Of a stretch of 64,000 nucleotides of DNA, positions 23,235 to 46,344 are shown piece by piece. Under the pieces are notes generated by a model, which saw nothing but the letters and a program-made list of their open reading frames with translations, ran no database searches and had not been told where the DNA came from. Every line of letters begins with the position of its first letter. Positions within the stretch are counted from its first letter, which is position 1. This DNA is from a virus. Location of the stretch: the IMG/VR virus record IMGVR_UViG_3300035162_002132; one strand, given 5' to 3'. A program made the translations under genes and the position numbers.

Positions 23235-24626
23235 TTAAGCACTCTTAAGGTTGGTAATCTTACCTTGTCCCTTGAAGAAAGAACAACATGTTTCACCCAT
23301 AGTGCGGTACATTCCTTGATTACCAAGTTTACCAACACCGAATGGATTTCCACTAGTGATACCATCTTCGAAGTATTGTGTAGGTTTCATAACAGACAAC
23401 CAAAGATGGTCTGTATCAAGAATCAATATATCGCTAATCCTGTTTGCTGTTTGCTTACCAGTTGAAGGCATATCTTTAGCAGGGATAATTGGTATATCGT
23501 AGTAGGTTGCCACTCGGAAACCAACTTCTGTACCTTTAACACCACGAACACCATTATGAGTAGGAACAATTTCTTTCCTATCCATGAATCTCTCTTGTGC
23601 TTGTAACAAGTCAGAGAGTTGCTGTATAGTATCGTATCCAGTAATGATAACTTTAGGATTTCCACCGTTTTGGCGGATTTTACGAATCATATCATTCATA
23701 ATACTTAGTGTTAAAACTCTACAATTACCTGCTGTATAATCAGTACCGAAGTCAACTTCTGCATCTAAGAAAGAAGCAGTACCAACGTATGTGTGACTAC
23801 CTGCACTACCACCACGAGTAATAGTTCTATCAGAGCCATATATCAAACTAGCATCAGCAAGTTGTGCTACTGTTCCGTTTGAAGTCTGATTGAAATCAAA
23901 CACGTCATCCAGTGCCATTTGTGCTATTTCCGCAGCAGAAGAAACTATCTTCAGTAATGAAGTATAATTTTTATCTATGTCACCTGTTGCTGTTTGTGCA
24001 TATGCCTCAAGAGGCATAACTAACATCTTGCTTTGTACTTCAGCGTGTAACTTACCCATATCTTCTCTAACGATAGCGCGAATATCTCCGACACCATCAT
24101 CAATAGCAGCAAGTTCCATTCCAAGTTCTGAGAACTCAAACAGATGCGCTACTGTCTTAGGGCTAACATATAGTTTAGTGTATTCCGGTGCTAAAGCAAC
24201 GAAACTACCTGAACCAATTACAGCGTTTTCTCCGACTCCACCAATTGTATCTGCTCTTGGTGTTGCTGCGTTTGCAGATGAAATATTTGCGCTTACAGCG
24301 TTTGAACCAAGTGCGAAAGCAGAACCTGAACCACCAATAGGTCGGCTCTTTAGTACTCTCCAACCTGAAGATGTGTATGGCCTCTTAGCAATCATAGAAA
24401 GAGGATTAACTTCTTGGTTTAACATTGACCATACTTTCTGTCCGTAAAGAACGTTGTATAAGTCGCCTAGACCTGCCGCAGCAGTAAAGGGATTAGATGC
24501 TCCATCGTGCGGAGTACCGAAACCACCAACAACTCCACCCGCTTTGAGTAGAGCGTTACCTGAGTTTCCGCCGTATCCGTATGTTGCCGCTTCTAAATCT
24601 TTCATTGTTTTAATGTATCCTGACAT
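23235..24626 (-). CDS. Major capsid protein (HK97 fold)
   Basis: Follows protease; VSPKTVAHLFEFSELGMELA, GFRVATYYDIPIIP, FKGQGKITNL motifs typical of archaeal HK97-type MCPs; highly-expressed codon usage. Confidence 0.9.
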   Translation of the reverse strand: MSGYIKTMKDLEAATYGYGGNSGNALLKAGGVVGGFGTPHDGASNPFTAAAGLGDLYNVLYGQKVWSMLNQEVNPLSMIAKRPYTSSGWRVLKSRPIGGSGSAFALGSNAVSANISSANAATPRADTIGGVGENAVIGSGSFVALAPEYTKLYVSPKTVAHLFEFSELGMELAAIDDGVGDIRAIVREDMGKLHAEVQSKMLVMPLEAYAQTATGDIDKNYTSLLKIVSSAAEIAQMALDDVFDFNQTSNGTVAQLADASLIYGSDRTITRGGSAGSHTYVGTASFLDAEVDFGTDYTAGNCRVLTLSIMNDMIRKIRQNGGNPKVIITGYDTIQQLSDLLQAQERFMDRKEIVPTHNGVRGVKGTEVGFRVATYYDIPIIPAKDMPSTGKQTANRISDILILDTDHLWLSVMKPTQYFEDGITSGNPFGVGKLGNQGMYRTMGETCCSFFKGQGKITNLKSA

Positions 24627-28470: not shown

Positions 28471-28979
28471 GCACTTGTCGTTGGAGGGTTTACTGAACTT
28501 CTACCACTAGCGGTTGTTCCCATGTCCATCTCAATAAGAACTCTAACAGCCTCATATGCTTTTTCCGCCGAACCTGTTCTTCCTTGTTTAAGTTCAGCAG
28601 TAGCCATTTCTAATTCTTTAAGTGCATCTTTGTAGGCTGCTGATTCCATTAGGTTATTTTCATTTTGTTCAAACGGAGAAGCATCATTTCCCATAGGAGA
28701 ATATTTTTCACCATATTGTTTGATTAACGATTCTAATGCTGATATTACACTCGCCTTAGTTACCTCATTAAGTTTATTTTCCTTTCCTTCAACATTACTT
28801 GTCTTAGGTAGAGATTCTTCTGATGGGTTTTTCTTAGGTCTACTCAATGTAATATCTTCACCAGTTAACGGCTCATCTAGTTTTAATGTACCTAGATGTG
28901 CTGCTTCTTGCAATACTTCTTTCGCTTTTCGTATAGTCAATTCGACTATTTTTTCTTCCCATGTTACTCTCTCCGGCAT
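28467..28979 (-). CDS. Hypothetical head-region protein
   Basis: 170 aa ORF, coupled. Confidence 0.7.
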   Translation of the reverse strand: MPERVTWEEKIVELTIRKAKEVLQEAAHLGTLKLDEPLTGEDITLSRPKKNPSEESLPKTSNVEGKENKLNEVTKASVISALESLIKQYGEKYSPMGNDASPFEQNENNLMESAAYKDALKELEMATAELKQGRTGSAEKAYEAVRVLIEMDMGTTASGRSSVNPPTTSA

Positions 28980-31633: not shown

Positions 31634-31876
31634 TTAATTACCTTTCCTTTTCTCTTCTTCTAGATTTTTCTTTGCTCTTGCTATGAATGACTTCTGTCCT
31701 GCTGTTTTGTTTTTTGGTTGTTGCATGAACTCATTCATCCAACTAGTGTCTGCTGCTTCTTCCAATTCTTCAGGAAGTTTATAGTCAGGTTTCTGCATAT
31801 CTTCATCATCACCAAACTCATCTGCTACTGATTGTTCATAAGGAGTTAATGTTTTTAGTATATCTTTCCAACTCAT
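31634..31876 (-). CDS. Tagged protein (MSWKDILK; start revised to 31876)
   Basis: GGTGA RBS then TAAAATG after the upstream stop. Confidence 0.75.
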   Translation of the reverse strand: MSWKDILKTLTPYEQSVADEFGDDEDMQKPDYKLPEELEEAADTSWMNEFMQQPKNKTAGQKSFIARAKKNLEEEKRKGN

Positions 31877-31877
31877 T

Positions 31878-32195
31878 TTATTCACCATGTCTATATTTAG
31901 CACCATAATTAGATATAAATTTTGAATCCTGTCTGTCGGCAGATAAATTTTCTGTTGACCCGCCATATTTTGCTACTTCAATTAAATCTTTATCCAAGTC
32001 ATCTAATATTTTTCTTAAGTCTTTAACATGAGTTTTAATCATTACTTCGCTAACTTCTGTTGGTTTTGCAATTTCTTCTTCTATAAAAGTAAGTTTCAGT
32101 TCCATAGACTTTAGCCTACTATGTATACCAATAAATCTACCATGCTCTGATTGTGGCCCTTGAAATTTTTCTTTCAATACGTCTTCCCAACTCAT
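31878..32195 (-). CDS. Tagged protein (MSWEDVLK)
   Basis: Tag plus GGTGATTTAGAATG start block. Confidence 0.75.
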   Translation of the reverse strand: MSWEDVLKEKFQGPQSEHGRFIGIHSRLKSMELKLTFIEEEIAKPTEVSEVMIKTHVKDLRKILDDLDKDLIEVAKYGGSTENLSADRQDSKFISNYGAKYRHGE

Positions 32196-32206
32196 TCTAA
32201 ATCACC

Positions 32207-32566
32207 TTATATCTTATACACATACTCAGCCTTTTTATCTGAAGGTGTTATATTATTTACATAAACCTCAACATGATAGTCTCCTGCATCGGTGTCAGGG
32301 TTTCCAAAAAGCGACTTCGGAAATCTTTCTTTCATAATATGTGCTAATAGTTTCTTTTCCAACATATCTCTAACCATGCTTTTTGTTTCTTTTTCTGTTA
32401 TAAAATCTGCTTCTCCATGCATAACGCTACTGCTAGGGTCTTTTACTTCTACACGGGCTGATAACTCAAAATGTAAATCGTCAAAAGCAACTCCTTTTAC
32501 GGGTTCAGAAGGTGATGTAAACTTTTTACTTTCACCATCATTTTTTACTATATCTTTCCAACTCAT
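32207..32566 (-). CDS. Tagged protein (MSWKDIVK)
   Basis: Tag plus identical start block. Confidence 0.75.
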   Translation of the reverse strand: MSWKDIVKNDGESKKFTSPSEPVKGVAFDDLHFELSARVEVKDPSSSVMHGEADFITEKETKSMVRDMLEKKLLAHIMKERFPKSLFGNPDTDAGDYHVEVYVNNITPSDKKAEYVYKI

Positions 32567-32572
32567 TCTAAA

Positions 32573-32983
32573 TCACCGCTTCCTCATATTTGTTGGTCTT
32601 CCTTGTTTCGAATAATCTTTTTCTCTCTCAAAGTTTCCATGTATATCCATATGAAAGTAGGTAATATAATTCCTTTTATCACTTACGAAACCCGCAGTAT
32701 TGTAATTTCTATCCCGAACACCAACATACAAACCCTTTTCGAATTCGTTTTGGTCGAAACGTGCAGGGTCACCAAAGATATGAATATCTAATTCTTTTCC
32801 TAACCCATCTAAAGCACTACCATCATTAATTTCCTTCTGCATTTCATTTATCTTTTTTTGGTTATAATCTGTTTTTTCAAAAAGATGTCTATTTAAAAAT
32901 CTTTCAACTTCTTTTTCTAACCTATCAATAAGTTTTGCACTAGAATTTGTTTCGGTTTTTTTTAATATACTTTCCCAACTCAT
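32573..32983 (-). CDS. Tagged protein (MSWESILK)
   Basis: Tag plus identical start block. Confidence 0.75.
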   Translation of the reverse strand: MSWESILKKTETNSSAKLIDRLEKEVERFLNRHLFEKTDYNQKKINEMQKEINDGSALDGLGKELDIHIFGDPARFDQNEFEKGLYVGVRDRNYNTAGFVSDKRNYITYFHMDIHGNFEREKDYSKQGRPTNMRKR

Positions 32984-33053
32984 TCTAAATCACCTACTAT
33001 TGGTAAACTCATTCCTACATTCCAAACTATTATATCTGTAAATAATCTTAATT

Positions 33054-34712
33054 TCATCCTACTCTCCTCTCTGTTCTCTTGTCCACATTTTCATTTCCTG
33101 CTTCTCTTGGTAATCCAGTAAATCTCTTATCAGGGCCAGTTGACATGGACGGCTTGTTCCTCGTAGCCGGGGGGTTCTCTTGAGGTTTGCTATTTTCTCC
33201 ATCTTGATTACCCATCATCATCTGTTCTTGCATTTGTCCCATTTGACTAGCATCAACATCTGTTCCTGCATATGGGTCTAAACTAACATCTTCCTTTCCT
33301 TCACTACTTTCTCCCTGTTCAGGTTGGGGTTTAGGTTTAGTGTAAATGAATCTCCCTTCATCATCCATATCAACTTCGAATCCTAAGTTCTTAATCGCAG
33401 CAGCAACGTTAACTTCTATCTCTCTCTTACGAAGAACAGCAATCTCATCTTCTTCTTCTGATGGAGGTAACTTAAGTTGCCAATCTGTAATACCAAACTC
33501 CTTAGTCATAAACGGGAAAACATAGTTGTTCCAAATAGTCTGTGCCATTTCTACTGCTCTGTTAGTAACTAGTACTTGCATACCCTCATTATTGAGTCCA
33601 CCACTAGCAGAGTTATCAGCCATGAAAATCTTACTAACTCCATAGAAAGCAGATATTCTATCTCTTAAATCATCTTTAACTTGTATGTAGTCCATCTCTT
33701 TCAGACTGTCCATGAACTTAACCCATTCAACAGAACCCTTACCACCTTCAGATTCTATTCCCATTACTGGTATAAAGTGTGGGTCTTGTTCCATCTTCTC
33801 TTTGACCCCACGCCAAAAAGATTTCATAGAATCCATGTTTCTAGTTTGAACTGCCAATATTCCTTTAGGCATTCTTGCCTTAGTATATGATGAATTAACA
33901 TAGTTTTCCATAGCAATTAAAGTAGTCACATTATTCCATAATGTTATCACAGGTGAAAGACCATACAAACGACTAGGGGAATACTTACTAAAATGTAATA
34001 CTTCACCTTTCACGAAATACTGTTCTTCTCCATTTACTCTATTAACATAATGAACGGGGTGTAGTTCTGAACTACAAACTTCACATAATTCAGTGGTAGT
34101 TGAATGTATTCTATCACGATGACGCAAACAAGTAAACCCACTCTTTCCTCTTTCACCTAGTTCATTAGAATAAATATGCATCGTCACTGGGTCGCCACGG
34201 TAAACTTCTTTGATTCTATGCATTCTAACTGAGTTATTATTATCTGCAAAATACTCTTTAACCATAACCATGTATGCATCGTCCATAATATTCAAATCAT
34301 CCTCAAGTTCTTTAAGAACATCAATAAACATCTGTTCTGAACAATTAACATATCCTTCTAAGAAGTCTTTAGCATATTTTAATTGCTCAGGATTTGGTTT
34401 GTTTAAATCTACACTACCACAGTCTGCACATTCTTTTGTTGCATTTTCATGTTCTTTACCACAAGACCCACATTTAACTGCAAACATAGCATCCCAATGG
34501 TATCCTCGTCTAAATATTTCTTGTTTAAGTTGAGTAATACAAGTTCTAACAATAGTAGACTGAGTAACTATATGATATATTATGGGAGATGTTAACATAT
34601 AAGAGGTATCTTTTTCCTGAATACCCATGTTGAATACTGTTCTATCTGCGGGTTTTGGCGTAGTCTGCCTAAACAGATTACTAACACTAAATCTTCTTTT
34701 TTCTTCTACCAT
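33054..34712 (-). CDS. Portal protein with Zn-ribbon insertions
   Basis: VRTCITQLKQEI, DLNIMDDAY, EVLHFSKYSPSRLYGLSPV, RISAFYGVSKIFM portal motifs; near TerL. Confidence 0.85.
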   Translation of the reverse strand: MVEEKRRFSVSNLFRQTTPKPADRTVFNMGIQEKDTSYMLTSPIIYHIVTQSTIVRTCITQLKQEIFRRGYHWDAMFAVKCGSCGKEHENATKECADCGSVDLNKPNPEQLKYAKDFLEGYVNCSEQMFIDVLKELEDDLNIMDDAYMVMVKEYFADNNNSVRMHRIKEVYRGDPVTMHIYSNELGERGKSGFTCLRHRDRIHSTTTELCEVCSSELHPVHYVNRVNGEEQYFVKGEVLHFSKYSPSRLYGLSPVITLWNNVTTLIAMENYVNSSYTKARMPKGILAVQTRNMDSMKSFWRGVKEKMEQDPHFIPVMGIESEGGKGSVEWVKFMDSLKEMDYIQVKDDLRDRISAFYGVSKIFMADNSASGGLNNEGMQVLVTNRAVEMAQTIWNNYVFPFMTKEFGITDWQLKLPPSEEEDEIAVLRKREIEVNVAAAIKNLGFEVDMDDEGRFIYTKPKPQPEQGESSEGKEDVSLDPYAGTDVDASQMGQMQEQMMMGNQDGENSKPQENPPATRNKPSMSTGPDKRFTGLPREAGNENVDKRTERRVG

Positions 34713-34713
34713 G

Positions 34714-35025
34714 TTACCACTTCACTTTGTTAGCCCAATATGCCGCAGACTGTTTTCCACGCTTAATATTCTTAGCATGTCTAGCCTTAAAACTATCTTG
34801 CTTCTTTTTTCGTTTCCCTTTTGGATTGTCAGTGGTTACGGTGTCTGCTCCCTGCTCACCAAACCGTATGGTTTTAATTTTAGTTTGTTTACCATCTTTC
34901 CATCTAGCAACTACAACGTGAGATTTCTTAGAATGCTTAGGAGTTCTCTTTGGTTTGTTAAAACCGGAAACCCCTGCCCTCTTTAATCTAGGGTCTTTTT
35001 CTTTAATAATATCAAACCAAGTCAT
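34714..35025 (-). CDS. Tagged basic protein (MTWFDIIK) of a widespread marine-phage family
   Basis: KDPRLKRAGVSGFNKPKRTP...IRFGEQG...SAAYWANKVKW, recognised from memory of marine phage hypotheticals. Confidence 0.75.
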   Translation of the reverse strand: MTWFDIIKEKDPRLKRAGVSGFNKPKRTPKHSKKSHVVVARWKDGKQTKIKTIRFGEQGADTVTTDNPKGKRKKKQDSFKARHAKNIKRGKQSAAYWANKVKW

Positions 35026-36347
35026 ATTACTCCCTCCAACTTATCCATTTCCGACATCATACAATTGTCATGTAGTTTAGAAACAGTATCTATATCAATA
35101 TCATAACTAGTAAAATCAAAACCAACATGGTCTTTATGGTTTTCATATTTCATCAACTTAAACAGGTCATGTTTTCTACCATGATACCAATCAGTCTTCT
35201 TATGTGATTTTTTCATTCTAATTAACTCTAGTAGAATATCAGCATTTGGCCCTTTCATTCTAAAATGTGGCCTACATTTAGTTAATATTTCAGTTACATC
35301 TGCGGCGGAATAAAAATTTAATCTATTCACTGGTCTAGTATCTTGCGGAGATTTTTGGTCTAGATGTAGTCTGCCACAACCTAGAGATTTATGCATTTCT
35401 AACATGAAAGCCTTACCTCTTTCACCCGTAGCGACTAACCCAACTCTAGGGTTATATTTTTTATCCATAGTTATGTAGCCATCTGAATCTATGAATGCTG
35501 CTGTATATGCATAAATATCTTTTTTAATCTCGTCACTAAATTTGTAGAATGCACCATCAACAGAAGTAATATTACTTTGTATAGCCATTTTAGCAATTAT
35601 ACTAGGTGTAGTTTTATTGAACAACGGCTTCGGTAATCTTTCATGTATTTGCCTAGCCGATACACCTGACTCTTCACAAACAATACTGGTTATGTGATGT
35701 TTTAGAATATCTTTTTGAGTAGTAGTTTTCATATGTTTCTTTAACACTCGTTTGAACTCTCTCTTAGAATTAGTCATTAACTTAGTTAATGAACAAAATT
35801 CAGAATTATAAGGCATACCATCTTTCTCTACTTTGGCTTCCCAATATTTGCATAGAACATCAATCAATTCTCTTCTAGTATTTTCATCATTAACATATGA
35901 AAGTTTGATTAAGTGGTCTTCAGTACAAGTCATATTTTTTAGTACAGGTTTATATTTTCTAACCCAGTAAATAGAATCCATACTACTATCTAAATGGTCT
36001 GAATATGCTTTAATTAAATTCTCTATTGAATGTGTAATTTTTACTTTATCTTCGCCTTTCAACTTTCTTCTATATTTTTTCAGAGATTTAATAGTTCTAG
36101 GAATATCATTTCCTTCTATCTCATATTTCTTTAAGTTATATTTTAATTCTGATTTAGCATCAGATAGAGACAATCTGAAATCCTCTGCAAACTTCTTTTC
36201 CAAAGTAGTATGGTCTTCTAAAGTAGTAGTTGATAACCACTTCCTTTTCATTTCATCAGTGATTCTATTTTGTTCGTCTTCTGCGGTTTCTTTTCTTCTT
36301 GCTACTTCAGCAAGTTCCTCAAATTTTTCACTTTCTTTTTCCGCCAT
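35022..36347 (-). CDS. LAGLIDADG endonuclease-domain protein with long N-terminal extension
   Basis: AYTAAFIDSDGYI motif then PRVGLV, LGCGRLH, RLNFYS; wHTH-like GVSARQIHERL precedes it. Confidence 0.8.
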   Translation of the reverse strand: MAEKESEKFEELAEVARRKETAEDEQNRITDEMKRKWLSTTTLEDHTTLEKKFAEDFRLSLSDAKSELKYNLKKYEIEGNDIPRTIKSLKKYRRKLKGEDKVKITHSIENLIKAYSDHLDSSMDSIYWVRKYKPVLKNMTCTEDHLIKLSYVNDENTRRELIDVLCKYWEAKVEKDGMPYNSEFCSLTKLMTNSKREFKRVLKKHMKTTTQKDILKHHITSIVCEESGVSARQIHERLPKPLFNKTTPSIIAKMAIQSNITSVDGAFYKFSDEIKKDIYAYTAAFIDSDGYITMDKKYNPRVGLVATGERGKAFMLEMHKSLGCGRLHLDQKSPQDTRPVNRLNFYSAADVTEILTKCRPHFRMKGPNADILLELIRMKKSHKKTDWYHGRKHDLFKLMKYENHKDHVGFDFTSYDIDIDTVSKLHDNCMMSEMDKLEGVI

Positions 36348-36358
36348 ACAATTACCCC

Positions 36359-37792
36359 CTAGAAGTTTAGCCCTGCCATACCGCCTAAAGACCTATTCAT
36401 AGGTTTAGGTGTATCGAATAATCCCATATCATCCAATAACATGAAGACATCTTGAGTTTTTGTAGCGCAAGAAACGGCCAATGCTAAACTCATAACCAAG
36501 TCATCATGCGCACCTACACCTTCAAATCTACCGCTATGGGTAATAGAAAACATAGATAGTTCTTCAATTAAAGCATTAGTCAAAGTTCTACTATTATTAT
36601 CACCATAAGGAAAGTGTATCTTACCATTCTCTATATTCATTTGTAGGCTTAAAATAATCTCTTGTTTATTTTTTCTAGTAGTAGTAAAGTCTCTAACATT
36701 CAAATCTGAAATACTTCTAAGTTCTTGCGTAAACGCTTTAGCAAAAGTATTAGTTTCATAGAGTATTTCTTCAGGTTCAAATATTCTACCAATCAACCGT
36801 ATTTTCTCAATGTTCTCTCTAAAGTCAACATTCTTTGCTCTGTCTACATGAACAATAGTTTTGTTCTTCTCATCATCAACTTCTATAACAGTAATAACAT
36901 TGTAGTCTCCATCAGTTGAGATAGCAGGGTCAACCCCAACATAATATTTGTAGCCCTTATCTTTTCTATGTCCTAGTCTCAAAACGTAATCTTTGTTTTT
37001 ACATTTAGTAATAAACTCAGGATTAAACAAGGCTGTACCAGTAGATATAGGGACACATAGATATTCTCTTGTAAATTTCAAAGAACCTATCTCTGCTTTC
37101 CTACGCATGAGAGCATCGTAATCCCATCTTTCCGGCCAAAGTGGTTCGTTCATAGAAGTAAGACATGGATATTTATTAACAGTATATGCAGGGTTTTCTT
37201 CTAACTGTGCAAATATGTCGGTGTAAGTAAATGGAGTTCCAATCATTCTCAATTTAGAAGTATGATGTAATGTTGGTATCATATCTCCAAAGAACCAATC
37301 AGTAACTCGCTGAATACCTGCAAGACTAAACTCTTTCAAAGGGTCGTCAATGATAATTTCTTGAGGATGAAGACCTCTAATCTGAGAACCAACAGAACGT
37401 TCTAAAATAGCGTTACCATTTGTGAGTTGTATATTACCAATAGCCCAACCCCTACTAGGTTTGAATTTTTTAAGTGCCGGTAAATTGAAGTATCTATCAA
37501 TCTCTCTCATATGAACTAGAGTTTGTTTTTGGTTAGAAGATATGTATAACATTTGATACGGTGGTTCTTGGAAACATAAGTTCCATACTACCCAACTGTG
37601 CATAAAGACAGATTTTCCGTGGTCACGACTACAAACAATAACAGTTCTATCTGTTGTCTCCATTGTCTCTAACCATTCATGCATGTATTTAGGATACATC
37701 ATCCCTAGTACATTCTGAAAAAAATAAGGAAACGATGTTTTAGATATTTCCATGTCCATAGAGGATATAAAATCTAAGTCACCTAATTCCAT
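36359..37792 (-). CDS. terL: Terminase large subunit
   Basis: Walker A SRDHGKS, Walker B IIIDD, coupling GTP, nuclease GVDPA and HDDLVMSLALA. Confidence 0.92.
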   Translation of the reverse strand: MELGDLDFISSMDMEISKTSFPYFFQNVLGMMYPKYMHEWLETMETTDRTVIVCSRDHGKSVFMHSWVVWNLCFQEPPYQMLYISSNQKQTLVHMREIDRYFNLPALKKFKPSRGWAIGNIQLTNGNAILERSVGSQIRGLHPQEIIIDDPLKEFSLAGIQRVTDWFFGDMIPTLHHTSKLRMIGTPFTYTDIFAQLEENPAYTVNKYPCLTSMNEPLWPERWDYDALMRRKAEIGSLKFTREYLCVPISTGTALFNPEFITKCKNKDYVLRLGHRKDKGYKYYVGVDPAISTDGDYNVITVIEVDDEKNKTIVHVDRAKNVDFRENIEKIRLIGRIFEPEEILYETNTFAKAFTQELRSISDLNVRDFTTTRKNKQEIILSLQMNIENGKIHFPYGDNNSRTLTNALIEELSMFSITHSGRFEGVGAHDDLVMSLALAVSCATKTQDVFMLLDDMGLFDTPKPMNRSLGGMAGLNF

Positions 37793-37793
37793 C

Positions 37794-38354
37794 TTACTTC
37801 CTCATAATATAAAACCAATTAGAAGCAGGGCGGTAATACAATTTTCTAATGGCTGTTGTAGGGGCATTTTCTCTCGCTAATTTTTCAAAGACTTCTTTAA
37901 CATCTTCAGGAATATCATCTTGGCCTATTACTTTCCTATTACCATCAAACTGTATTTCTTGAAATCCTTGACGATTAACAAAAACAGAGAGTCCTTTAGG
38001 CATAGCCTCTCCTACTATTGGCCTATGACTATGTAAATCAATTACTTTTTTTGATACCCATAATCCTGCACCCCTAGTTTGTTCTCTAGATAACCCAGTT
38101 TCTGTTGCATGGCTCTTTAACCCAGTCAACAAAAATATATTTTTGTAAGGAGCAATACCTTGAACTGCAACAGGTTTTCCATCTTTTACTGTTGGATGAT
38201 ACGCAATGTAATACTTTGGTCTAACTCGTGCAAACATTGTATTGTTCATTAGTTTATATCGTTGCGCTCTAGTTTCGTAGGTAATACCATGTTCAGCAAA
38301 TACCCTAACCACCTCTTCCTCAGACATAGGGTTAGATATTTGAAACTCTTCCAT
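37794..38354 (-). CDS. Possible GNAT-fold acetyltransferase
   Basis: QTRGAG (motif A-like) and GLSVFVNRQGF (motif B-like); ends NWFYIMRK. Confidence 0.45.
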   Translation of the reverse strand: MEEFQISNPMSEEEVVRVFAEHGITYETRAQRYKLMNNTMFARVRPKYYIAYHPTVKDGKPVAVQGIAPYKNIFLLTGLKSHATETGLSREQTRGAGLWVSKKVIDLHSHRPIVGEAMPKGLSVFVNRQGFQEIQFDGNRKVIGQDDIPEDVKEVFEKLARENAPTTAIRKLYYRPASNWFYIMRK

Positions 38355-38358
38355 CTAA

Positions 38359-41091
38359 TCACCTAAAATTTGCTTTGAGGAAATACACTCCTTCTTTTGG
38401 TACTCCGTGTTTTTTACTCAGTTCTTCCATTGACGTTGTTTCAGAAACAATATTTTGAATTTCATATGCAGAAATATCAACATGATATTTTGATTTCATA
38501 ATGAGCATAGCAGAATGAACGTGTTCGAAATTATCCGTCTTAGCAGTATTATAGTATATCGGTTTACCTAACATTTTTCGAATACTATCGTGTGCATCTA
38601 ATAACTTAGTATCAATATCACTTCTTATGATTTTCATACCATCAACAGCAATAACAAATCTCTGTACTATTGTATTAGCACCTTTAGTTCGTCTATCCTT
38701 TCCACGAACCATTGTTCTTTTACTACCACTGTAACCACCGATGTTTCTTTTGATATGACTTTCAATTGCTTCAAATGGATATACGTTTGATTCATCATAT
38801 AGTTTATTCCACTCTGATGGAGTCTTACCTCTTGCATTTGGGAATTTTTCACCTTCAGGCCAACTAATGTCGTTGGCTTCTAATACCTTATGTAAATAAG
38901 TTCCAAACTCTATGTTAGTTTCTTGTGATAATATGGAGTTTCTTTTATTCATAAGAACAAAGTTAACTGCTTTTATTCCCTTTGTTAGTTCATTCACTAA
39001 TCTACCAATATCTTTCTTATCATCTACCGAACTCAGGAACTCTAACATTCTAGTCAAATCTTCCAACTCATTCGCTTTAACCATTAAGTGTCCTGCTCTG
39101 CCTTCTAACGCTAACACTTTGAACAATGCCGTATCTGTTCTACCTGTTGCTAATGCTCTGAATATTCTACGAGTTTTATTTGTTTTAGTGTCAAACGGGA
39201 ACTCATCATCAAATGGTTTGTTAGAACCACTGATGGGAACTACGAAATAATCTAACACTGCTTCAATTAAATCATTAAATTCTTCTCTTGCTTCTTCTAT
39301 ATCTGCTAAGTGGTCTTTTCTGTTTATAGTTCCTAGTTGTGGTCTTTTTTGTGAAGGTACTCCTTCACTAGAAGAACCAACCTTTGCTTGTGCAGGTGAA
39401 GATGCTCTATCTAAATCATCACCTGCGTCTAATATCTTACTTATATTATCTAAGAAATCCCCAATAGCAGATAATTTTTTGTTAATACCACTTTCAGTGT
39501 TCATGGCCTTATCATCAACATTCCAATTTTCTGTCACCATGAATTTGTTTACTGTTTCTGTTAATGGTAAATAATATGGCCCATTTCCACCTTTAGCCAT
39601 AGTTTTCTCTACTTCATCAACATAAGCATTAATCTTATCATCCATATCAACACCAGTAGCCATCTCTCTAGAAGCACCTGCTCCTAACATGGCTTCTCTC
39701 AAAGTGTTAATATCATCTCTAAATGCAACCGTATCTTTGAACGCTCCTGATTCAGCATTGAAAGCATGATAGAAAAGAGGGTCTACTTTAGTAGCCATCC
39801 TTTTAAGTTTAATACCAAACCTAGAAAGTTCTTCTAATTCTTTCTTGTTCTCTGCCGCACTAACATTTCTTTCTTGTGTAACAGCGTCATCAGAATCAAA
39901 CGTCTGACCACCATCTTCTACGGTAACTGTCTCTTTGTAATCCCCACTAGTTTTATCATAATATCCTTCTTTTCTAGCACCTCTATCATCAGAAGTATCC
40001 TTTAGAGTATCTAAACCTACTTCAGCAATAAACTTCTCATATAATGCAAGACCTTTGTGTTTTTTGAAATAAGGTTCAAGTTCTTTAGGATTAATTTTAA
40101 CAACATAATCTAGTTCATTGTTATTGACTGCCGATTTATATGATAGAAACATATCTATTATATCAGCAATCTCTTGTTTATCTTTGTCATCCCTATTGTC
40201 TCCCTCAACTAACATATCTCTAATAGGAAGAAAGGCTTCATTACATGCATTGTATGCGTCTACAAAGTTTTTGTACTTACCCTTATGACCTTTCCAAAAG
40301 TTGTAAATCCTATTACGCCTATCTAATCTTTTAAGGTCTAGTTCACCTATTATTTGGTCAGCATCTAAATGAATTATTTGTTCTTCTACTTTGTCTAATG
40401 GTCTTAAGACTGTAACAAGTGGTTGAAGTCTTCTTTGAATCGCAGGGGTTTGGTTCTGTATTATAAACTTCCATCTCTCTATGTTTTTCATTTTTACATT
40501 TCTATCTCTAAGTGAAACCCTAGTTAGATTCCTATCTTGTTCAATTGTATTCCTATACGTTAATTGTTTACCGTCTTCATCTAAGAAGTTCTTTAAAGTT
40601 TCATGTAATAGTTGTTTATCTCTCGTAATAGATTTATCATCATCAACAGTATCGCTCACTAAGTCAGTACCTTTAACCCCGCCTTTAACTTCAGATAACT
40701 TTAGTAATTGTTTTACCATTAAATCTCTAGTTGTTTTAGGTATGTCACTAAAATCTGAGTATTTAGCGTTAATATCTTCAACAAGCATGTTAGTAAGTTC
40801 GCCCATTTGTTTACCTTTGAGTTGATATTTACTAGAGAGTTTACCATTACTAATAAAATCAGTATCTTTACTCAGAAATCTGTGTAGGAAATCAGGCTTA
40901 AACTCATCAAAATAATCATCAAGTCTATCATCTGCTTCCATCTCTATTTGACTTTGTAGGTTCTTTAATTCATCTTCACTCATGTCTGCATACTTATCAG
41001 ACTCTTTGACTTTCTTTTCCGCAAACTCTTCTAACGAATCAGCGTTAACCATTAGTAATTCAAACACTTCGTATAATTCACTATCATCCAT
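38359..41091 (-). CDS. Large acidic hypothetical protein (910 aa), candidate ejection/internal protein
   Basis: D/E/K-rich helical ORF in the head module. Confidence 0.75.
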   Translation of the reverse strand: MDDSELYEVFELLMVNADSLEEFAEKKVKESDKYADMSEDELKNLQSQIEMEADDRLDDYFDEFKPDFLHRFLSKDTDFISNGKLSSKYQLKGKQMGELTNMLVEDINAKYSDFSDIPKTTRDLMVKQLLKLSEVKGGVKGTDLVSDTVDDDKSITRDKQLLHETLKNFLDEDGKQLTYRNTIEQDRNLTRVSLRDRNVKMKNIERWKFIIQNQTPAIQRRLQPLVTVLRPLDKVEEQIIHLDADQIIGELDLKRLDRRNRIYNFWKGHKGKYKNFVDAYNACNEAFLPIRDMLVEGDNRDDKDKQEIADIIDMFLSYKSAVNNNELDYVVKINPKELEPYFKKHKGLALYEKFIAEVGLDTLKDTSDDRGARKEGYYDKTSGDYKETVTVEDGGQTFDSDDAVTQERNVSAAENKKELEELSRFGIKLKRMATKVDPLFYHAFNAESGAFKDTVAFRDDINTLREAMLGAGASREMATGVDMDDKINAYVDEVEKTMAKGGNGPYYLPLTETVNKFMVTENWNVDDKAMNTESGINKKLSAIGDFLDNISKILDAGDDLDRASSPAQAKVGSSSEGVPSQKRPQLGTINRKDHLADIEEAREEFNDLIEAVLDYFVVPISGSNKPFDDEFPFDTKTNKTRRIFRALATGRTDTALFKVLALEGRAGHLMVKANELEDLTRMLEFLSSVDDKKDIGRLVNELTKGIKAVNFVLMNKRNSILSQETNIEFGTYLHKVLEANDISWPEGEKFPNARGKTPSEWNKLYDESNVYPFEAIESHIKRNIGGYSGSKRTMVRGKDRRTKGANTIVQRFVIAVDGMKIIRSDIDTKLLDAHDSIRKMLGKPIYYNTAKTDNFEHVHSAMLIMKSKYHVDISAYEIQNIVSETTSMEELSKKHGVPKEGVYFLKANFR

Positions 41092-42860
41092 TATGCTCGG
41101 CCTCCTTCACTAGCAATCCATTCGAAGGGTTGTATTGCTCCTTTTTTATTATGTAGGATTGGTTCTTCCATAACTTGAGACATTTTATTCTTTATTCTCA
41201 CTAATAGTTCTGAATGAAGTTCGCCATATGATTTAGTCAATTGTGCTTTGAACGTCTTAATTCCTTCATCATCTTTATTTTTTCTAAGCCGCCTAAGTGC
41301 CATGTCTAAAACTCTGTCTCCTAACATATACCCTTCTAATATTACTATTGCCTCCAACAAATCTGAAAACCTCAATGTTTGATTATGAGATAAGGTAGGG
41401 TCTTTCAACTTATTTCCTTCACCACTACGGCTAGTTAGATAGTTACCAATCGGGTCGTTATCTACTTCTTCGAATAGAAATTGTAGTGTTGGAATACGTT
41501 GTTTATCTATTATAGAAACTGAACCTTCCTTACCTCGCATTTCTTTTAATGCCGCTAAAATCTGTTCGGGGTTTCCATATTCAGTATCTCCTTTAGTCAT
41601 TCTTTTGACTGAGGTTCTAAGTGGTCTGGAAAATAAGTAGCCTAATTCTTGCTTAACCAACTTCTGTTCTTCTTTACTCGCTCCGCCTTCCATCATAGCA
41701 ACAAGAGAATCTCTAAGTTTTTCTGACATAGTATATTTTCTAACCTTAGTTTCAGTAAGTAATTTTTCATAGTCTTCCCCTAAGTCAGCATTGTAAACTG
41801 CTGTTTTGAATTGCCCATAACCTGCTGTCCCTGTCTTCTTATTACCCTGACCCGTTTTTACAAACTTATTATACAGAGCAACTATCTCAGCATTTTCTAC
41901 TAAACCATCTCTAATGTTTGTTTGAAGTTGTTTCTCTTGTAGTGATTGCTTTGTTTGTTGTTTAACAAAACCAACATCTAAGTTAATAGTGTTATTACTC
42001 ATAATATAGTCTATGGCAGGTTGTATTCGACTAGTACCTGCTCCACTGTCTGCTCCAAACAAATCTTGCATTATCTCTTTCATATTTCTAGATACTTGTT
42101 TAATATTATCACTACTATGAATACTTAAATTTGGCATAAAAGGTTCTCTTGCCTTACCTCGAATAGAAGTTACCACCATTCTAACATAATCAGCAGCAAA
42201 CGAATCTGATATGGTTGAAGCATCTAGTGATTGAGATGAGGCTACTTCTCCATCATTATATTCAGGTAATCTATACACTTTTCCTAAACTAGTTCTAACT
42301 ATTGGTTTAGACGGAGTTCCCCCTGATAATAGTTTACCTTGTTTATCAGACAAACTATCAGGTAATGTTACCGTTAATTGTTTATCGAGTACATATTTTA
42401 AATCTGTTAACTTATCAGTATCGAAAGTTAGTGGTAGTTGTAATGTTATACCCTCTGTTTCATATCCATAAAGTTCAGGTTTGTCTTTGATATAATTGAA
42501 TATCTTATCGCCATTTTCTTTATCCCACTTAAGTAGCCTACTAATCTTAGCACCTGATTTAGATGGTGTCACTCCTTCTAAGAAAGAAATTAAAGGTTTG
42601 TGATTACCTGCAAGAAAGTCTTCATATAATTTTATTTCTTTAGGATTTTTATAATCATCATCTTTTTTTGAAGCACCTAATTTATCCAATAGAGGTTGAA
42701 ACTCTTTCTCATGCACACCATCTTCTACTAAGTTATTGATTGCCCTTCTAATCTGAGACTTACCATGATTAGCAAGTATCTCATCAAAGTTACCTGACTT
42801 TCTAGAAGCAATAATCTTGTCTCTGAGAGTTTGCCTTTTCAGAATATCTGTCCAATTCAT
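41091..42860 (-). CDS. Large tagged protein (MNWTDILK), 589 aa
   Basis: N-terminal tag; GAGG RBS. Confidence 0.75.
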   Translation of the reverse strand: MNWTDILKRQTLRDKIIASRKSGNFDEILANHGKSQIRRAINNLVEDGVHEKEFQPLLDKLGASKKDDDYKNPKEIKLYEDFLAGNHKPLISFLEGVTPSKSGAKISRLLKWDKENGDKIFNYIKDKPELYGYETEGITLQLPLTFDTDKLTDLKYVLDKQLTVTLPDSLSDKQGKLLSGGTPSKPIVRTSLGKVYRLPEYNDGEVASSQSLDASTISDSFAADYVRMVVTSIRGKAREPFMPNLSIHSSDNIKQVSRNMKEIMQDLFGADSGAGTSRIQPAIDYIMSNNTINLDVGFVKQQTKQSLQEKQLQTNIRDGLVENAEIVALYNKFVKTGQGNKKTGTAGYGQFKTAVYNADLGEDYEKLLTETKVRKYTMSEKLRDSLVAMMEGGASKEEQKLVKQELGYLFSRPLRTSVKRMTKGDTEYGNPEQILAALKEMRGKEGSVSIIDKQRIPTLQFLFEEVDNDPIGNYLTSRSGEGNKLKDPTLSHNQTLRFSDLLEAIVILEGYMLGDRVLDMALRRLRKNKDDEGIKTFKAQLTKSYGELHSELLVRIKNKMSQVMEEPILHNKKGAIQPFEWIASEGGRA

Positions 42861-43117
42861 TATACCTCACCCTCATGGAATAAATCTTCACTATCTTCGG
42901 TATGGGTTTCACCTGTCATAAGTTGACCCTTAGTCTTATGAGTTTTACCAGTCCACAATTTACCATTTTTCTTATAGTGTTTCATATCGGGACTTTTTTT
43001 AGCAGACTCGACCTGTTCGATTATTTTTAAAGCATCAACCATAGGTTCTTCTTTATCACCATCTCCATCCAAATCAGGATAGTCAGGTTTTTGTTTTAAA
43101 ATGTCAAACCAACTCAT
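42860..43117 (-). CDS. Tagged small protein (MSWFDILK)
   Basis: Tag plus KPDYPDLDGDGDKEEPM and HYKKNGKLWTGKTHK motifs seen in small marine-phage proteins. Confidence 0.75.
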   Translation of the reverse strand: MSWFDILKQKPDYPDLDGDGDKEEPMVDALKIIEQVESAKKSPDMKHYKKNGKLWTGKTHKTKGQLMTGETHTEDSEDLFHEGEV

Positions 43118-43134
43118 TGTAATTTCTCCTCCAT

Positions 43135-43590
43135 TTATTTTGACGCTTCATAAGTTATTGCTAATTGTTCAAGGGTAAGGTTGCCATTCTCGTATTTCAT
43201 CATCAAATCGCCTCCTTTGAGGTCTACTTCTAAAACTAATTGGGATTTTTGATTCAAATTAACAACATACTCAACATCAAACTCACTATTGGATGCCTCA
43301 AACTCAAAAACCTTTTTTGTAATAAAATCCTTATCTTCATAGTCTTCATCATTGGGAGGAATCCTAGAATAGAAACTGACTTCACCCTCTACTCTATCTA
43401 TTTGTTCTAAATATACTCCACCTTGATTTTCTGTTGTAGTATAAATCTTAAAAGAATAACTACTCACTTCTAATCGTTTTTTATTAGAATCTAATATTTC
43501 TACTGAAAAGTTTCTATCCTTGTGGGTTATATTTTGCCACACTTCCATTTCTTGCTTCTTAATGTCTTTTAGTATATTTTTCCAACTCAT
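43135..43590 (-). CDS. Tagged protein (MSWKNILK), beta-rich acidic
   Basis: Tag; GGAGAA RBS. Confidence 0.75.
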   Translation of the reverse strand: MSWKNILKDIKKQEMEVWQNITHKDRNFSVEILDSNKKRLEVSSYSFKIYTTTENQGGVYLEQIDRVEGEVSFYSRIPPNDEDYEDKDFITKKVFEFEASNSEFDVEYVVNLNQKSQLVLEVDLKGGDLMMKYENGNLTLEQLAITYEASK

Positions 43591-43613
43591 TGTACCTTCT
43601 CCTTCTTAATAAT

Positions 43614-43949
43614 TCAACGATTCTCATATCGTTCTTTGATTTCATTATCTGTAAATTCACTAGGTAATACTGGAAACATTATATCGTGTTCAGTAAACCC
43701 ATACATAGAATTATCAAACTCATCATATAGTTCATCAATTTCTTTCTCTTGAGTTATTGGGTCTAACCGATAAAACTTACTCCTAAACTTACCAAACTCT
43801 TCTGCTTCATCTTGTAGCGTTCCATCATTTCCATGAGGACTTTCATATTTTCTTCCGAAGCGTTCTAAATCATTTGTAAAGTCTTCATATAATGTTTTTA
43901 TCATATCATTTATTGTGATATCTTGTTTCAAAATGTTTTTCCAACTCAT
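43614..43949 (-). CDS. Tagged protein (MSWKNILK; start revised to 43949)
   Basis: ATGA overlap with upstream stop. Confidence 0.75.
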   Translation of the reverse strand: MSWKNILKQDITINDMIKTLYEDFTNDLERFGRKYESPHGNDGTLQDEAEEFGKFRSKFYRLDPITQEKEIDELYDEFDNSMYGFTEHDIMFPVLPSEFTDNEIKERYENR

Positions 43950-44317
43950 TGATGCCACGACCCCTGTTCAGGATAAAAATCCATAGCCTCTTCAATATCG
44001 TCTTTAAAATTTTCAGCAACTTCTAACCAATCAACATCTGATATTGAATCTCCTACTTCATCTCTATCATTAACGGGAGATAATAAATCATCCATAAACC
44101 CTTTATTTTGAGACATCATTTCGGGCAACTCTTTTGCTATTGCATTTAATACATCTTCAATAACTTCTTCTTTAGACCAATGCCAATCAAGATAGCCTTT
44201 TACCTTTTGTTTGATTAATTGTATTATAGGAAAATAATTTGCTTCCTCGTTCATAACCCACAAATCTGCACTTCTAGTTGCAGTTGTAGTGTCTTTCAAA
44301 ATATCAAACCAACTCAT
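43946..44317 (-). CDS. Tagged protein (MSWFDILK)
   Basis: Tag; ATGA overlap with TerS candidate. Confidence 0.75.
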   Translation of the reverse strand: MSWFDILKDTTTATRSADLWVMNEEANYFPIIQLIKQKVKGYLDWHWSKEEVIEDVLNAIAKELPEMMSQNKGFMDDLLSPVNDRDEVGDSISDVDWLEVAENFKDDIEEAMDFYPEQGSWHQ

Positions 44318-44970
44318 TGTAACTTCTCCTCCATTTTACTTCTAACATCTAGCCAAACTTCAGGATGATTTTGTGCTAGTACTTCTTTGATAATTTGCAT
44401 CTGATGAACAATAATTGTATCTTGTCTCTTGTGAACTAACTTACCCTTGAACTCCATTAGATACTTCAGAGACTCACGAACTTCTTTCGCTAACTTAGTT
44501 AGAGAATCAATATACTTAGCATCCAAATCATCTGAATCCATGAGTTGGTCTAACTTACCTTCAAGTCTAGAGATGTTACCGCTTAACGTATCAATCTCAT
44601 TTACCTCTCTAACTGCTATAATATGTGCTGCTGCTTGCTGAACTAAAGGTTGAATGTGATTTTTTATATGTCTAACAATCTGCTCTTTAGAACTACCAAC
44701 AATCTTAGCCGCTAAATCAGGAGTCATATCTCCACTGTAAAGTTCTTGCTCAATATCTGAACGGTTCTCATATGTGCATAGTTTACATTTTGGGTTTGAT
44801 GCATCTGCATATCCTTCCATGTGGTTTCTTTGATGTTTCGCAGTTGTACCACTAGGCCAATTTAATCTAATATCCAAATCATCCGGTGTACAAATCATAG
44901 TCTCTAAATCAGATTCAAGGGATTCCCTTTCCTCGTGATTACAAAGACGACACCGTTTTCTAGTTACCAT
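44314..44970 (-). CDS. Probable terminase small subunit / Zn-HTH DNA-binding protein
   Basis: Two CxxC...HxxxH/HTH repeats plus C-terminal coiled coil; near the start of the head operon. Confidence 0.5.
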   Translation of the reverse strand: MVTRKRCRLCNHEERESLESDLETMICTPDDLDIRLNWPSGTTAKHQRNHMEGYADASNPKCKLCTYENRSDIEQELYSGDMTPDLAAKIVGSSKEQIVRHIKNHIQPLVQQAAAHIIAVREVNEIDTLSGNISRLEGKLDQLMDSDDLDAKYIDSLTKLAKEVRESLKYLMEFKGKLVHKRQDTIIVHQMQIIKEVLAQNHPEVWLDVRSKMEEKLQ

Positions 44971-45051
44971 TTAATAATCTCCACAATAAGGACACATTGT
45001 CCCTGACCAATTATCTTCATCTAACTTATCTATTCCTCTACAACAGTTCAT
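44971..45051 (-). CDS. 26-aa Cys-rich microprotein MNCCRGIDKLDEDNWSGTMCPYCGDY (not in ORF track)
   Basis: Exactly fills the gap: ATGA overlap upstream, TAA-ATG abutting downstream. Confidence 0.6.
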   Translation of the reverse strand: MNCCRGIDKLDEDNWSGTMCPYCGDY

Positions 45052-46172
45052 AATGCCACCAACATATCTTGCCAACTATCTATTGATTTTTTCTCTTCAT
45101 CTAGTTTAGGTCTTGTACCAAACTTCAGTGGGTATGCCGCTATGTCTCCACTAGTTCTAGCCCAATGTAATGACATGCCTTTTGATTTAGCACGAATAAT
45201 AGCCATCCTTTTAATCTGCCTTCTAGATAGTTTGAACCAACATTCTGTGATGTCATTATCAACACTTAAATTCTTTAATGTTTTAACTGCTTCAGATTCA
45301 GTCTCGGTACTAATGTCAAACCCTTGAGTATTGAATAGTTTCCAAATTGGCTTATCGGGAAAAGAACCCGTTGTACCCTTGCCCTTATCCAAGGCAGAAT
45401 CAATTATATCTCTGATAAATGATATTGTTAAAGCAGTAGTTGCAGCCTTTGCTCCTTCAATGGGTACGCGGTTATCTTCCCCTAATGCCATATCAGCATT
45501 TTCTAATGTTTCAATTGCATTTTTAATTATACTATGTAAACTAGGGGAATTGAAAGGTGAAGCATTACCATCACCGTAAAGAACTTGCCAAAAGGGAGGT
45601 TGTGCTGCATTCTGTGTCTCGTTATACCACTCACTATCTTTAGCAGGAGCATCTTGACCTTTTAATTCTCTTACTGTTTCATATTCGTCAGTTCTGTAAT
45701 GTCCAAAAACAGGCTTAGTATTCAATATTGCTCCTGTTCTATCAGACCAATTGGAAGGATTTGAAAACTTAATATTTCTAGGGTCTGCGCTAGTTCCTTG
45801 AATATTATCCATTATAGTATCTACTTTCTTTAATGCAATTTTTTGCGCCTGTGTCATATCTCTACTATTGAATACAGTCTTCAAACCTTTGAATATTTGA
45901 ACTCCACCTTTACCCTTTATTTTAGTTCCGACCTTACCTTTAACTCTACCCGCAATGCCTTGATTCTTCACTAAGTCTAACAAACTTAACCCTCTTGTTT
46001 CAGGACTCATCATACCAATAGTGTCACCCCTAAGACCTTCTGCTTTTCTTTGCCAAATCTCAAACTCTTCTCTAAAAGATTTAGAGGTTACGTCTAAACT
46101 AGCAGAACTTCCATCAGGTAGTTTTACTGGTAAGCCTTTCTTTTTTCTTACTGGCTTTTTTCCTTTTACCAC
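45048..46172 (-). CDS. Hypothetical protein (374 aa) ending SWQDMLVAL
   Basis: GTG start; C-terminal tag-like helix. Confidence 0.7.
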   Translation of the reverse strand: MVKGKKPVRKKKGLPVKLPDGSSASLDVTSKSFREEFEIWQRKAEGLRGDTIGMMSPETRGLSLLDLVKNQGIAGRVKGKVGTKIKGKGGVQIFKGLKTVFNSRDMTQAQKIALKKVDTIMDNIQGTSADPRNIKFSNPSNWSDRTGAILNTKPVFGHYRTDEYETVRELKGQDAPAKDSEWYNETQNAAQPPFWQVLYGDGNASPFNSPSLHSIIKNAIETLENADMALGEDNRVPIEGAKAATTALTISFIRDIIDSALDKGKGTTGSFPDKPIWKLFNTQGFDISTETESEAVKTLKNLSVDNDITECWFKLSRRQIKRMAIIRAKSKGMSLHWARTSGDIAAYPLKFGTRPKLDEEKKSIDSWQDMLVAL

Positions 46173-46344
46173 GTTTTTTACCCCCTATTGATTCGTTGTT
46201 GAATAGTGCTGATGTTCCAGTCGAAGAAGTAGTGACTGCTCCCCCCATTCTTAGGATGTTAAACCAAGAATCTTTGGAAGCCCTAACTAAACCTTGCTGT
46301 GTCCCACTAAGACCAAGACTATCAAACTTACTTATGTTACTCAT
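46114..46344 (-). CDS. Small basic protein with internal SWFNILR motif
   Basis: 76 aa; K/R-rich tail. Confidence 0.65.
   Translation of the reverse strand: MSNISKFDSLGLSGTQQGLVRASKDSWFNILRMGGAVTTSSTGTSALFNNESIGGKKRGKRKKASKKKERLTSKTT

Follow-up and report, generated by a model that had tools for sequence, protein, structure and literature searches.

The 64,000-nt stretch of IMG/VR virus record IMGVR_UViG_3300035162_002132 analysed here (hereafter the window) holds on its minus strand an array of small genes whose joints repeat one another. The layout is the same in the window and in its relatives: a conserved left anchor gene, p218, which encodes 218 amino acids (aa), comes first, then a series of small, acidic and mutually unrelated genes whose products begin with the tag M-S-W-x-D/N-I-L-K, and finally a conserved gene of about 590 aa with the same tag, which in the window is p589 (Table 1). 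The gene boundaries within the array are compact blocks of stop codon, ribosome-binding site and start codon. In the window, the four consecutive small genes p123, p111, p151 and p85 (starts 44317, 43949, 43590 and 43117) have a start and tag sequence, ATG-AGT-TGG, in common.

Two of the joints carry a 39-bp direct repeat (43098–43136 and 44298–44336), which a first-pass annotation of the window had described as two mismatched positions in 39 at a distance of exactly 1200 bp. Both figures are correct: 37 of the 39 positions are identical and the start-to-start spacing is exactly 1200 nt, while with blastn the match between the copies widens to 40/43. On the minus strand, joint copy 1 encodes the last six codons and the stop of p218 (MEEKLQ-stop), and this stop overlaps the start of p123 (MSWFDIL...) as ATGA. 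In joint copy 2, the stop codon of p151 (43135–43137) is followed by 17 non-coding nucleotides and then by the start of p85, which again reads MSWFDIL.... Copy 2 had been annotated as an intergenic fossil of the p218 3′ end. Its upstream half is indeed non-coding and equals the conserved 3′ end of p218, but it is not inert, as it supplies the ribosome-binding site of p85, and the remainder of the copy is the start of p85 itself.

The joint block can be described as a ribosome-binding site and spacer equal to the last six codons of p218, followed by ATG-AGT-TGG and tag codons. A third, degenerate copy of its upstream half (14/17) precedes the gene start at 43590. When up to three mismatches are allowed, the 24-nt core of ribosome-binding site, spacer and ATG-AGT-TGG is found at three sites in the window (43109–43132, 43582–43605 and 44309–44332), compared with none in 100 shuffles. 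The repeat is no unique pair, but represents two of the three copies of the joint block in the window array.

Table 1. Coordinates of the array, its joints and other genes of the window
Feature	Coordinates	Strand	Remarks
p218, left anchor gene	44314..44970	-	two CxxC-plus-short-helix units, then long helices; last six codons form the first joint block
Joint copy 1: p218 3′ end, ATG-AGT-TGG, first p123 tag codons	44298..44336	-	
Cassette p123, 123 aa, acidic, MSWFDILK tag	43946..44317	-	homologues in L164, L010, L019, L022, L014
Cassette p111, 111 aa, acidic, MSWKNILK tag	43614..43949	-	start overlaps p123 stop (ATGA)
Degenerate joint copy ahead of p151	43582..43605	-	14/17 to p218 3′ end
Cassette p151, 151 aa, acidic, MSWKNILK tag	43135..43590	-	travels as one unit with joint copy 2
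Joint copy 2: non-coding copy of p218 3′ end after p151 stop, ATG-AGT-TGG, first p85 tag codons	43098..43136	-	
Cassette p85, 85 aa, MSWFDILK tag, PDYPDLDGDGD motif	42860..43117	-	last cassette ahead of the right anchor
p589, tagged right anchor, MNWTDILK	41091..42860	-	conserved in relatives
80-aa tagged gene, second array	31634..31876	-	start is the partner of the tag-to-tag 10,984-nt deletion in L244 and L253
Large terminase (TerL)	36359-37792		Pfam Terminase_6C; phrog_38 at 5.8e-56
Portal	33054-34712		
Capsid protein	23235-24626	
Prohead protease candidate	28467-28979		

A scan of IMG/VR with p218 returned 91 relatives, from which 80 loci were kept. Almost all of these retain the C-terminus ...M[EQ]E[KR]LQ-stop together with the ATGA overlap with the next gene, and the six-residue end persists in nearly all homologues of p218, as far down as 53% identity. 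The gene that follows p218 is tagged M-[STN]-W at 67 of 81 junctions under the strict tag pattern, but its identity changes from one locus to the next in nearly every case. The distance from p218 to the p589 homologue is 1454 nt in the window, compared with 0 nt in L003 and L005, roughly 250–270 nt in L001, 1080 nt in L006, 1460 nt in L004, 1570 nt in L024 and 1800 nt in L002. Between p218 and p589, the nearest relatives hold from zero to four unrelated tagged genes, which bears out the earlier description of an expandable cargo locus. Homologues of p589 with 67–69% identity stand after the array in L001–L004 and L024, in L003 directly behind p218, and a 47% homologue takes the same position in L005. 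At the DNA level, homology between the window and L001–L004 and L024 ends just past the ATG-AGT-TGG that follows p218 (around 44292–44309) and restarts at the start of p589 (around 42861–42874). Thus, all four small genes, p85 included, constitute variable cargo. No homologue of p111 was found in IMG/VR; the exact protein is present in four independent assemblies, always directly after p123. The relatives are marine contigs of 90–102 kb, and a member of the TerL cluster of the window is present in PRJEB19060, the dataset of the first magrovirus assemblies. The window virus is probably a magrovirus and, as such, an archaeal virus.

The closest relative, L163, was found by a metagenome scan with p85. 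Its p218, p85 and p589 proteins are 98.6%, 96.5% and 92% identical to those of the window. The two genomes share 97.3% nucleotide identity over 2601 nt up to position 44293 and 95.8% over 3130 nt from position 43123. Between these flanks, the window has 1169 nt comprising three genes and the second joint, whereas L163 has 393 nt with a single, unrelated tagged gene of 137 aa. The piece exchanged relative to L163 coincides exactly with the segment that the two repeat copies delimit. In L163, p85 is preceded by this different cassette and by a GGTGAT-type block rather than a p218-like one, and the site is not empty.

Other relatives show further states of the same locus. L187 and L165 are 98.7% identical except for a 532-nt insertion of two tagged genes, flanked by a 16-nt repeat of the tag start. 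In L164, a 66-aa gene and a p123 homologue with 96% aa identity lie between p218 and p85. The collapsed arrangement, with a p85 homologue directly after p218, had been named beforehand as a check on the locus, and it exists in a more distant clade (L165, L166 and L176). The homologues are 64–67% identical in L165 and L166, and a fragment at a contig end in L176 is 90% identical over the first 42 aa. Homologues of about 57% identity are located around 2.8 kb upstream of p218 in L172, L173 and L175. A 1200-bp deletion junction had been named as a check as well; at strain level, no such variant was seen among assembled contigs with the exact p218, p123, p111, p151 and p85 proteins, which is a weak negative. 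Exact-protein look-ups of these five proteins returned only the full arrangement or the variant of L244 and L253 described below.

Individual cassettes can be followed from one genome to another together with their joints. The p151 cassette recurs at 96.6–97% nucleotide identity in L161 and L162, where both of its flanks are unrelated to those in the window. The limits of the homology are exact: it opens with the cassette's own ATG-AGT-TGG and closes right behind the one that starts the next gene, so that copy 2 is included. Both genomes have the cassette in their portal-proximal array (L161/L162:3990-5260), where it is preceded by the GGTGAT-type start block that is usual there. The presence of p151 with a p218-type flank in this other array indicates that cassettes move between the two arrays. 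Similarly, p123 homologues with 85–90% nucleotide identity are found in L010, L019 and L022, in arrays upstream of p218, and one with 81% aa identity directly follows p218 in L014. Homology to p123 starts at its own ATG and ends within a few nucleotides of the next ATG-AGT-TGG (L010, L019, L022 and L164). The cassettes inserted in the L164/L187 clade have p218-like flanks that do not resemble the clade's own p218 end (...MEERMV-stop).

These limits of homology, with breakpoints in several genome pairs, show that the exchanged unit extends from one ATG-AGT-TGG to the next, so that every cassette brings along the start block of the gene downstream of it. Because copy 2 travels as the 3′ flank of p151, it need not be a scar made at the window site. 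It is a portable cassette flank, and not necessarily a local scar. The portal-proximal array of the window itself (31876–33010) also uses the GGTGAT-type start block, a type expected to pair with another part of the 16S rRNA 3′ tail.

To locate breakpoints more generally, 114 loci were compared all against all, retaining tracts of at least 88% identity and at least 150 nt. Within −25 to +40 nt of a tagged start we find 153 of the 361 internal tract ends, compared with 14.7 ± 3.9 for random positions. Left ends of tracts peak at 0, −1 and −13, and right ends at +8 and +23. A tract end is present at 18% of tagged starts versus 7% of untagged gene starts (2.4 times; odds ratio 2.7, Fisher p 9e-10), values that are indicative, as the loci are related. 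Codon usage within the tag is uneven. Of 291 serines at tag position 2, 262 are encoded by AGT, a codon whose share in gene bodies is 28%; the lysine, aspartate, isoleucine and leucine codons of the tag show ordinary usage and ordinary synonymous variation. It follows that conservation acts on the DNA in the nine-base core and on the protein in the remainder of the tag.

A separate observation concerns a large deletion between two tagged starts. Two independent runs (L244, Logan SRR10854700; L253, Logan SRR22704847) contain a junction of 42836–42865 to 31876–31886. From p218 through p85 they match the window's own strain, with 3 mismatches in about 1630 nt, and at the p589 start block they then switch to the 80-aa tagged gene of the second array. 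The deletion removes p589, a 910-aa gene, TerL and the portal. Its crossover sites share just 5–6 exact bases, which means that there must be reads across the junction. It may represent a defective genome or a by-product of tag-to-tag recombination.

The distribution of the block links it to p218. Of the 118 tagged genes located within 2.5 kb downstream of p218 (the array genes), 46 have in front of them a copy that matches a p218 3′ end in at least 14 of 17 positions; this holds for 0 of 43 tagged genes further downstream and for 2 of 240 upstream. The ribosome-binding site and spacer AGGAGARATTACA is found before 53 of the 118 array genes, and 21 of these 53 keep a functionless ATG at −17, for which base composition leads us to expect a few per cent by chance. 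Outside the p218 array, the corresponding figures for the AGGAGARATTACA block and for the ATG at −17 are 2/283 and 0. This ATG is kept at 56 of 57 p218 junctions with the block and has decayed in 60% of the internal copies. Internal copies score 13.49 against the p218 end of their own genome and 12.73 ± 0.25 against random ones, and 0 of 2000 permutations reach the observed value. Almost half of the internal blocks (25/53) are read through by the open reading frame of the upstream cassette, which then ends in ...QE[KR]LQ-stop with an ATGA overlap like that of p218; in a further configuration, seen in 8/53 blocks and in the window, the stop lies directly before the ATG. Identity of the copies to p218 is 89% at −1 to −13, 55% at −14 to −19 and at background level beyond. 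No longer relics of the p218 3′ end were found behind cassettes, and the 5′ edge at about −19 is sharp.

Taken together, we consider it likely that the repeat is a cassette joint of a hypervariable gene array. Such a joint has two roles. Firstly, judged from its sequence, it would start translation of the next gene through a GGAG-type Shine-Dalgarno sequence some 8 nt ahead of the ATG, frequently combined with an ATGA overlap. Secondly, as the breakpoints in several genome pairs show, it provides a patch of homology at which co-infecting or sister genomes recombine, whereby cassettes are replaced, inserted or deleted. The genes p123, p111 and p151, which lie between the two copies, are such a segment, exchanged relative to L163. 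The exchange looks like ordinary homologous or short-homology recombination. By analogy with tagged phage proteins, the tag probably directs the cassette products to a common fate, for example loading into the capsid.

The near-identity of the two copies in the window is probably the result of a recent recombination event, either a duplication or a conversion. Within an otherwise identical stretch, the 3′ ends of p218 in the window and in L163 differ in three adjacent bases, and the window p218 end is closer to its own downstream copy (16/17) than to the p218 end of L163 (14/17). Both window copies and the p85 of L163 carry the F-D variant of the tag, while other p123 homologues have K-D, K-K or E-D; in L164, the p123 and p85 homologues are both E-D tagged. 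The F-D tags and the resemblance of the p218 end to copy 2 fit a duplicative insertion into a p218–p85 junction or a later conversion between joints. Concerted evolution of tags within arrays was considered as a general phenomenon and set aside, as tags of the same array share 9.49 identical positions versus 9.25 ± 0.15, a difference that is not significant (reached by 136 of 2000 shuffles). Tag residues 4–5 are the same in 13 of 204 within-array pairs versus 5.7% expected, and matching p123 and p85 tags occur only in the two genomes that hold both genes.

Several points weigh against this explanation. The edge of the similarity at about −19 is sharp and no longer relics accompany it, so the block could equally be the primary element into which p218 reads. 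The explanation does not account for the presence of a p218 3′ end behind unrelated cassettes. Tags inside one array are not generally more alike than expected. In any virus, mosaic boundaries are prone to coincide with gene borders, as disrupted genes do not survive, and the statistics overstate independence, given that the compared loci are related. Neither a recombination intermediate nor a strain-level gain or loss of the 1.2-kb block appears among the assembled contigs. Finally, the assignment of the host rests on indirect evidence.

The first-pass annotation had proposed that the three tagged genes were inserted by a recombination that duplicated the junction. In a strict version of this scenario, an ancestor in which p85 directly followed p218 would have received p123, p111 and p151 in one event, by way of a Campbell-type circular three-gene unit or an unequal crossover, and copy 2 would be the local scar. 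We regard this as possible but, on balance, doubtful. It would account for the p85 homologues directly behind p218 in L165, L166 and L176, for the 16/17 match of copy 2 to the window's own p218 3′ end, and for the F-D tag on both copies, as if p123 had taken over the tag start of p85. Mini-circles described for the promoter-early stem-loop (PeSL) cassettes of T4-type phages offer a mechanistic precedent (PMC2839356). The part of the proposal that concerns the segment between the copies stands, as this segment is exactly what differs from L163. The duplicated scar fares less well. In L161 and L162, p151 and copy 2 form one 97%-identical unit in a different array, and the three-gene block is composite, with a degenerate joint in its interior. 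Moreover, p85 of L163 lies behind another cassette and a GGTGAT-type block, while the flanks in the L164/L187 clade, being unlike the clade's own p218 3′ end, must have been imported rather than duplicated. A collapsed variant at strain level is likewise missing from the assembled contigs.

A second alternative reverses the direction: the block would be a free-standing, portable joint, p218 would merely read through the first copy, and there would be no fossil of p218 at all. The read-through of 25/53 internal blocks by unrelated reading frames with the same ending and overlap argues for this possibility, as does the return to background identity beyond −19. It is nonetheless rather unlikely in our judgement, since the six-residue end is kept so widely among p218 homologues, since copies of the block are restricted to the 2.5 kb downstream of p218, and since the ATG at −17, almost invariant at p218 junctions, has decayed in most internal copies.

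Convergence without recombination, driven by a shared need for a ribosome-binding site, a start codon and a peptide tag, is very improbable. The block does hold a GGAG-type Shine-Dalgarno sequence and tag codons, and the later tag codons vary synonymously as usual; yet the functionless ATG and the spacer are identical between copies, the tag serine is nearly always AGT, a match by chance is not expected (0 in 100 shuffles) and the breakpoints of exchanged segments fall on the block. Although the window is a metagenomic contig and its joints are repeated sequences at which an assembler could jump between strains, a chimeric array is hardly credible, as an independent ENA assembly contains the gene order 218-123-111-151-85-589-910 once more, 99.97% identical, three Logan runs and one JGI sample contain stretches of it at 99.6–100% identity, and the repeats (at most 39 nt) are shorter than usual final k-mers.

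Returning to the cassette joint as the preferred explanation, the proteins on either side of it offer few functional clues. The gene p218 had been labelled a candidate small terminase (TerS), a label that we abandon: there is no TerS family match in Pfam, PHROGs or NCBIfam, no fold match, and the gene lies 6.5 kb from TerL. Its sole family matches are a weak one to phrog_21066, a family of unknown function (E 0.0033), and a weak one to an NCBIfam 'hypothetical protein'. A Foldseek search of the PDB with an AlphaFold2 model (predicted local distance difference test score, pLDDT, 70.7) found nothing at E ≤ 0.001 and only weak helix-turn-helix look-alikes. The residues C7, C10, C62, C65, H46, H50, H101 and H105 are invariant, and the protein has two tandem units of a CxxC knuckle and three short helices. 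Overall, p218 resembles a DNA-binding protein that depends on zinc and ends in a coiled-coil tail. The right anchor p589 is not the large terminase, as TerL is encoded at 36359–37792. Neither p589 nor the 910-aa protein has a match in PDB, Pfam, PHROG or NCBIfam, and the four cassette proteins p123, p111, p151 and p85 are without a match in PHROG or Pfam. A DNA search of a phage collection with positions 41000–46200 gave no match, and a protein search of the same collection with TerL gave remote matches only (at most 28%).

Two side observations concern p85. Its first 42 or so residues are fused to different C-terminal parts in magroviruses (L176, L183 and L185–L187). Residues 8–31 (43030–43096), with the sequence K-P-D-Y-P-D-L-D-G-D-G-D-K-E-E-P-M, recur at 70–94% in dozens of otherwise unrelated viral contigs (loci L085–L160 and L194–L242), some of them from genomes of 100–170 kb. 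This segment appears to be a calcium-binding-like module that is widespread among proteins of marine viruses.

The surroundings of TerL were also inspected. Directly upstream lies a basic 186-aa orphan (37794–38354), which by position is a TerS candidate. In viruses with a TerL at least 90% identical (loci L254–L263), a 166-aa GNAT acetyltransferase (Pfam Acetyltransf_1) is found directly upstream of TerL. Directly downstream, a 441-aa gene (35022–36347) matches an HNH endonuclease over residues 279–388 (phrog_5046, E 8.6e-6). Some packaging systems typically pair the terminase with an HNH protein, and the HNH gene may also have a bearing on recombination.

Magroviruses rank with the most abundant viruses in the surface ocean, none has been cultured, and almost no small gene of theirs has a known function. 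Three magrovirus papers make no mention of the tag, the cassettes or recombination. The locus described here shows where and how magroviruses renew their accessory genes, namely in a defined array behind a fixed anchor, with joints that are recognisable by sequence. With this joint rule, the pool of variable cargo genes can be extracted from metagenomes, and its turnover can be traced between strains and samples. Should the tag direct proteins to the capsid as the T4 leader does, the array would list the proteins that Marine Group II archaea receive upon infection. The delivered cassette proteins would then be natural candidates for anti-defence functions in a host with unexplored defences.

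The overall organisation of the array is reminiscent of integron cassette arrays. In both, small unrelated genes without promoters of their own stand in a row next to a fixed anchor, individual cassettes pass from array to array, and a recurring short site bounds them. In contrast to integrons, the site described here lies partly inside coding sequence, and exchange resembles homologous or short-homology recombination. No attC-like palindrome or inverted repeat is present at any joint of the window, and no integrase match was found among the selected window proteins that were put through family scans. A more far-reaching idea, which we put forward tentatively and with considerable doubt, is an integron-like capture free of a recombinase. 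A joint of about 40 nt would combine ribosome-binding site and start, an address tag for capsid loading and a homology patch; any open reading frame that came to lie between two joints would be expressed, translationally coupled and delivered, and large tag-to-tag deletions, such as the 11-kb one of L244 and L253, would circulate as defective genomes.

There is also a likeness to the internal-protein (Ip) loci of T-even phages. At these loci, which are polymorphic hotspots, diverse injected proteins share only an N-terminal capsid targeting leader (PMC3012670, PMC12373910). Work on these loci goes back to Repoila et al. 1994, as cited in PMC3012670, PMC2839356 and PMC12373910. Conserved flanking elements are thought to confine shuffling to the Ip loci. 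Threads common to both systems are small, mutually unrelated proteins with nothing but a short N-terminal leader in common, and a few polymorphic loci in otherwise conserved genomes. However, the leader M-S-W-x-D-I-L-K is unrelated to that of T4, and for the array packaging into the capsid, cleavage by a prohead protease and injection are drawn from analogy only. The searches reported above, with no PHROG or Pfam match for the four cassette proteins and no DNA match in the phage collection, reveal no relation to the T4 leader or to Ip proteins. A further difference is that the joint is derived from, or shared with, the 3′ end of the anchor gene.

The closest parallel in the joint itself is provided by the PeSL cassettes of the T4-type phages phi1 and RB49, in which blocks that run from stop to start flank orphan genes, and these genes are inserted, deleted or replaced through mini-circles (Arbiol et al. 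2010, PMC2839356). Close genomes differ by such insertions, deletions and replacements, with crossovers inside the blocks, some of them between the Shine-Dalgarno sequence or ATG and the −10 box; each cassette has its own expression signal, and no dedicated recombinase is known (PMC2839356). In the array described here, a conserved block from upstream stop to downstream start likewise flanks variable orphan genes (53/118 array genes, with three copies in the window), and close genomes likewise differ with crossovers in the blocks, as between the window and L163, between L187 and L165, and for the p151 and p123 cassettes. When comparing the blocks themselves, there is a marked difference in composition. 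Whereas PeSL elements hold an early promoter and a stem-loop terminator, the joint has neither; what precedes the start codon is a non-coding stretch of only 17 nt or else coding sequence that belongs to the upstream gene. As a translational joint, it reaches into coding sequence through the shared tag codons, and its upstream half equals the 3′ end of the anchor gene. In addition, PeSL cassettes belong to phages, while the window virus is probably archaeal. The locus thus extends the principle behind PeSL cassettes and T-even Ip loci, that expression signals double as recombination linkers, to a probably archaeal virus and to a joint that is partly coding.

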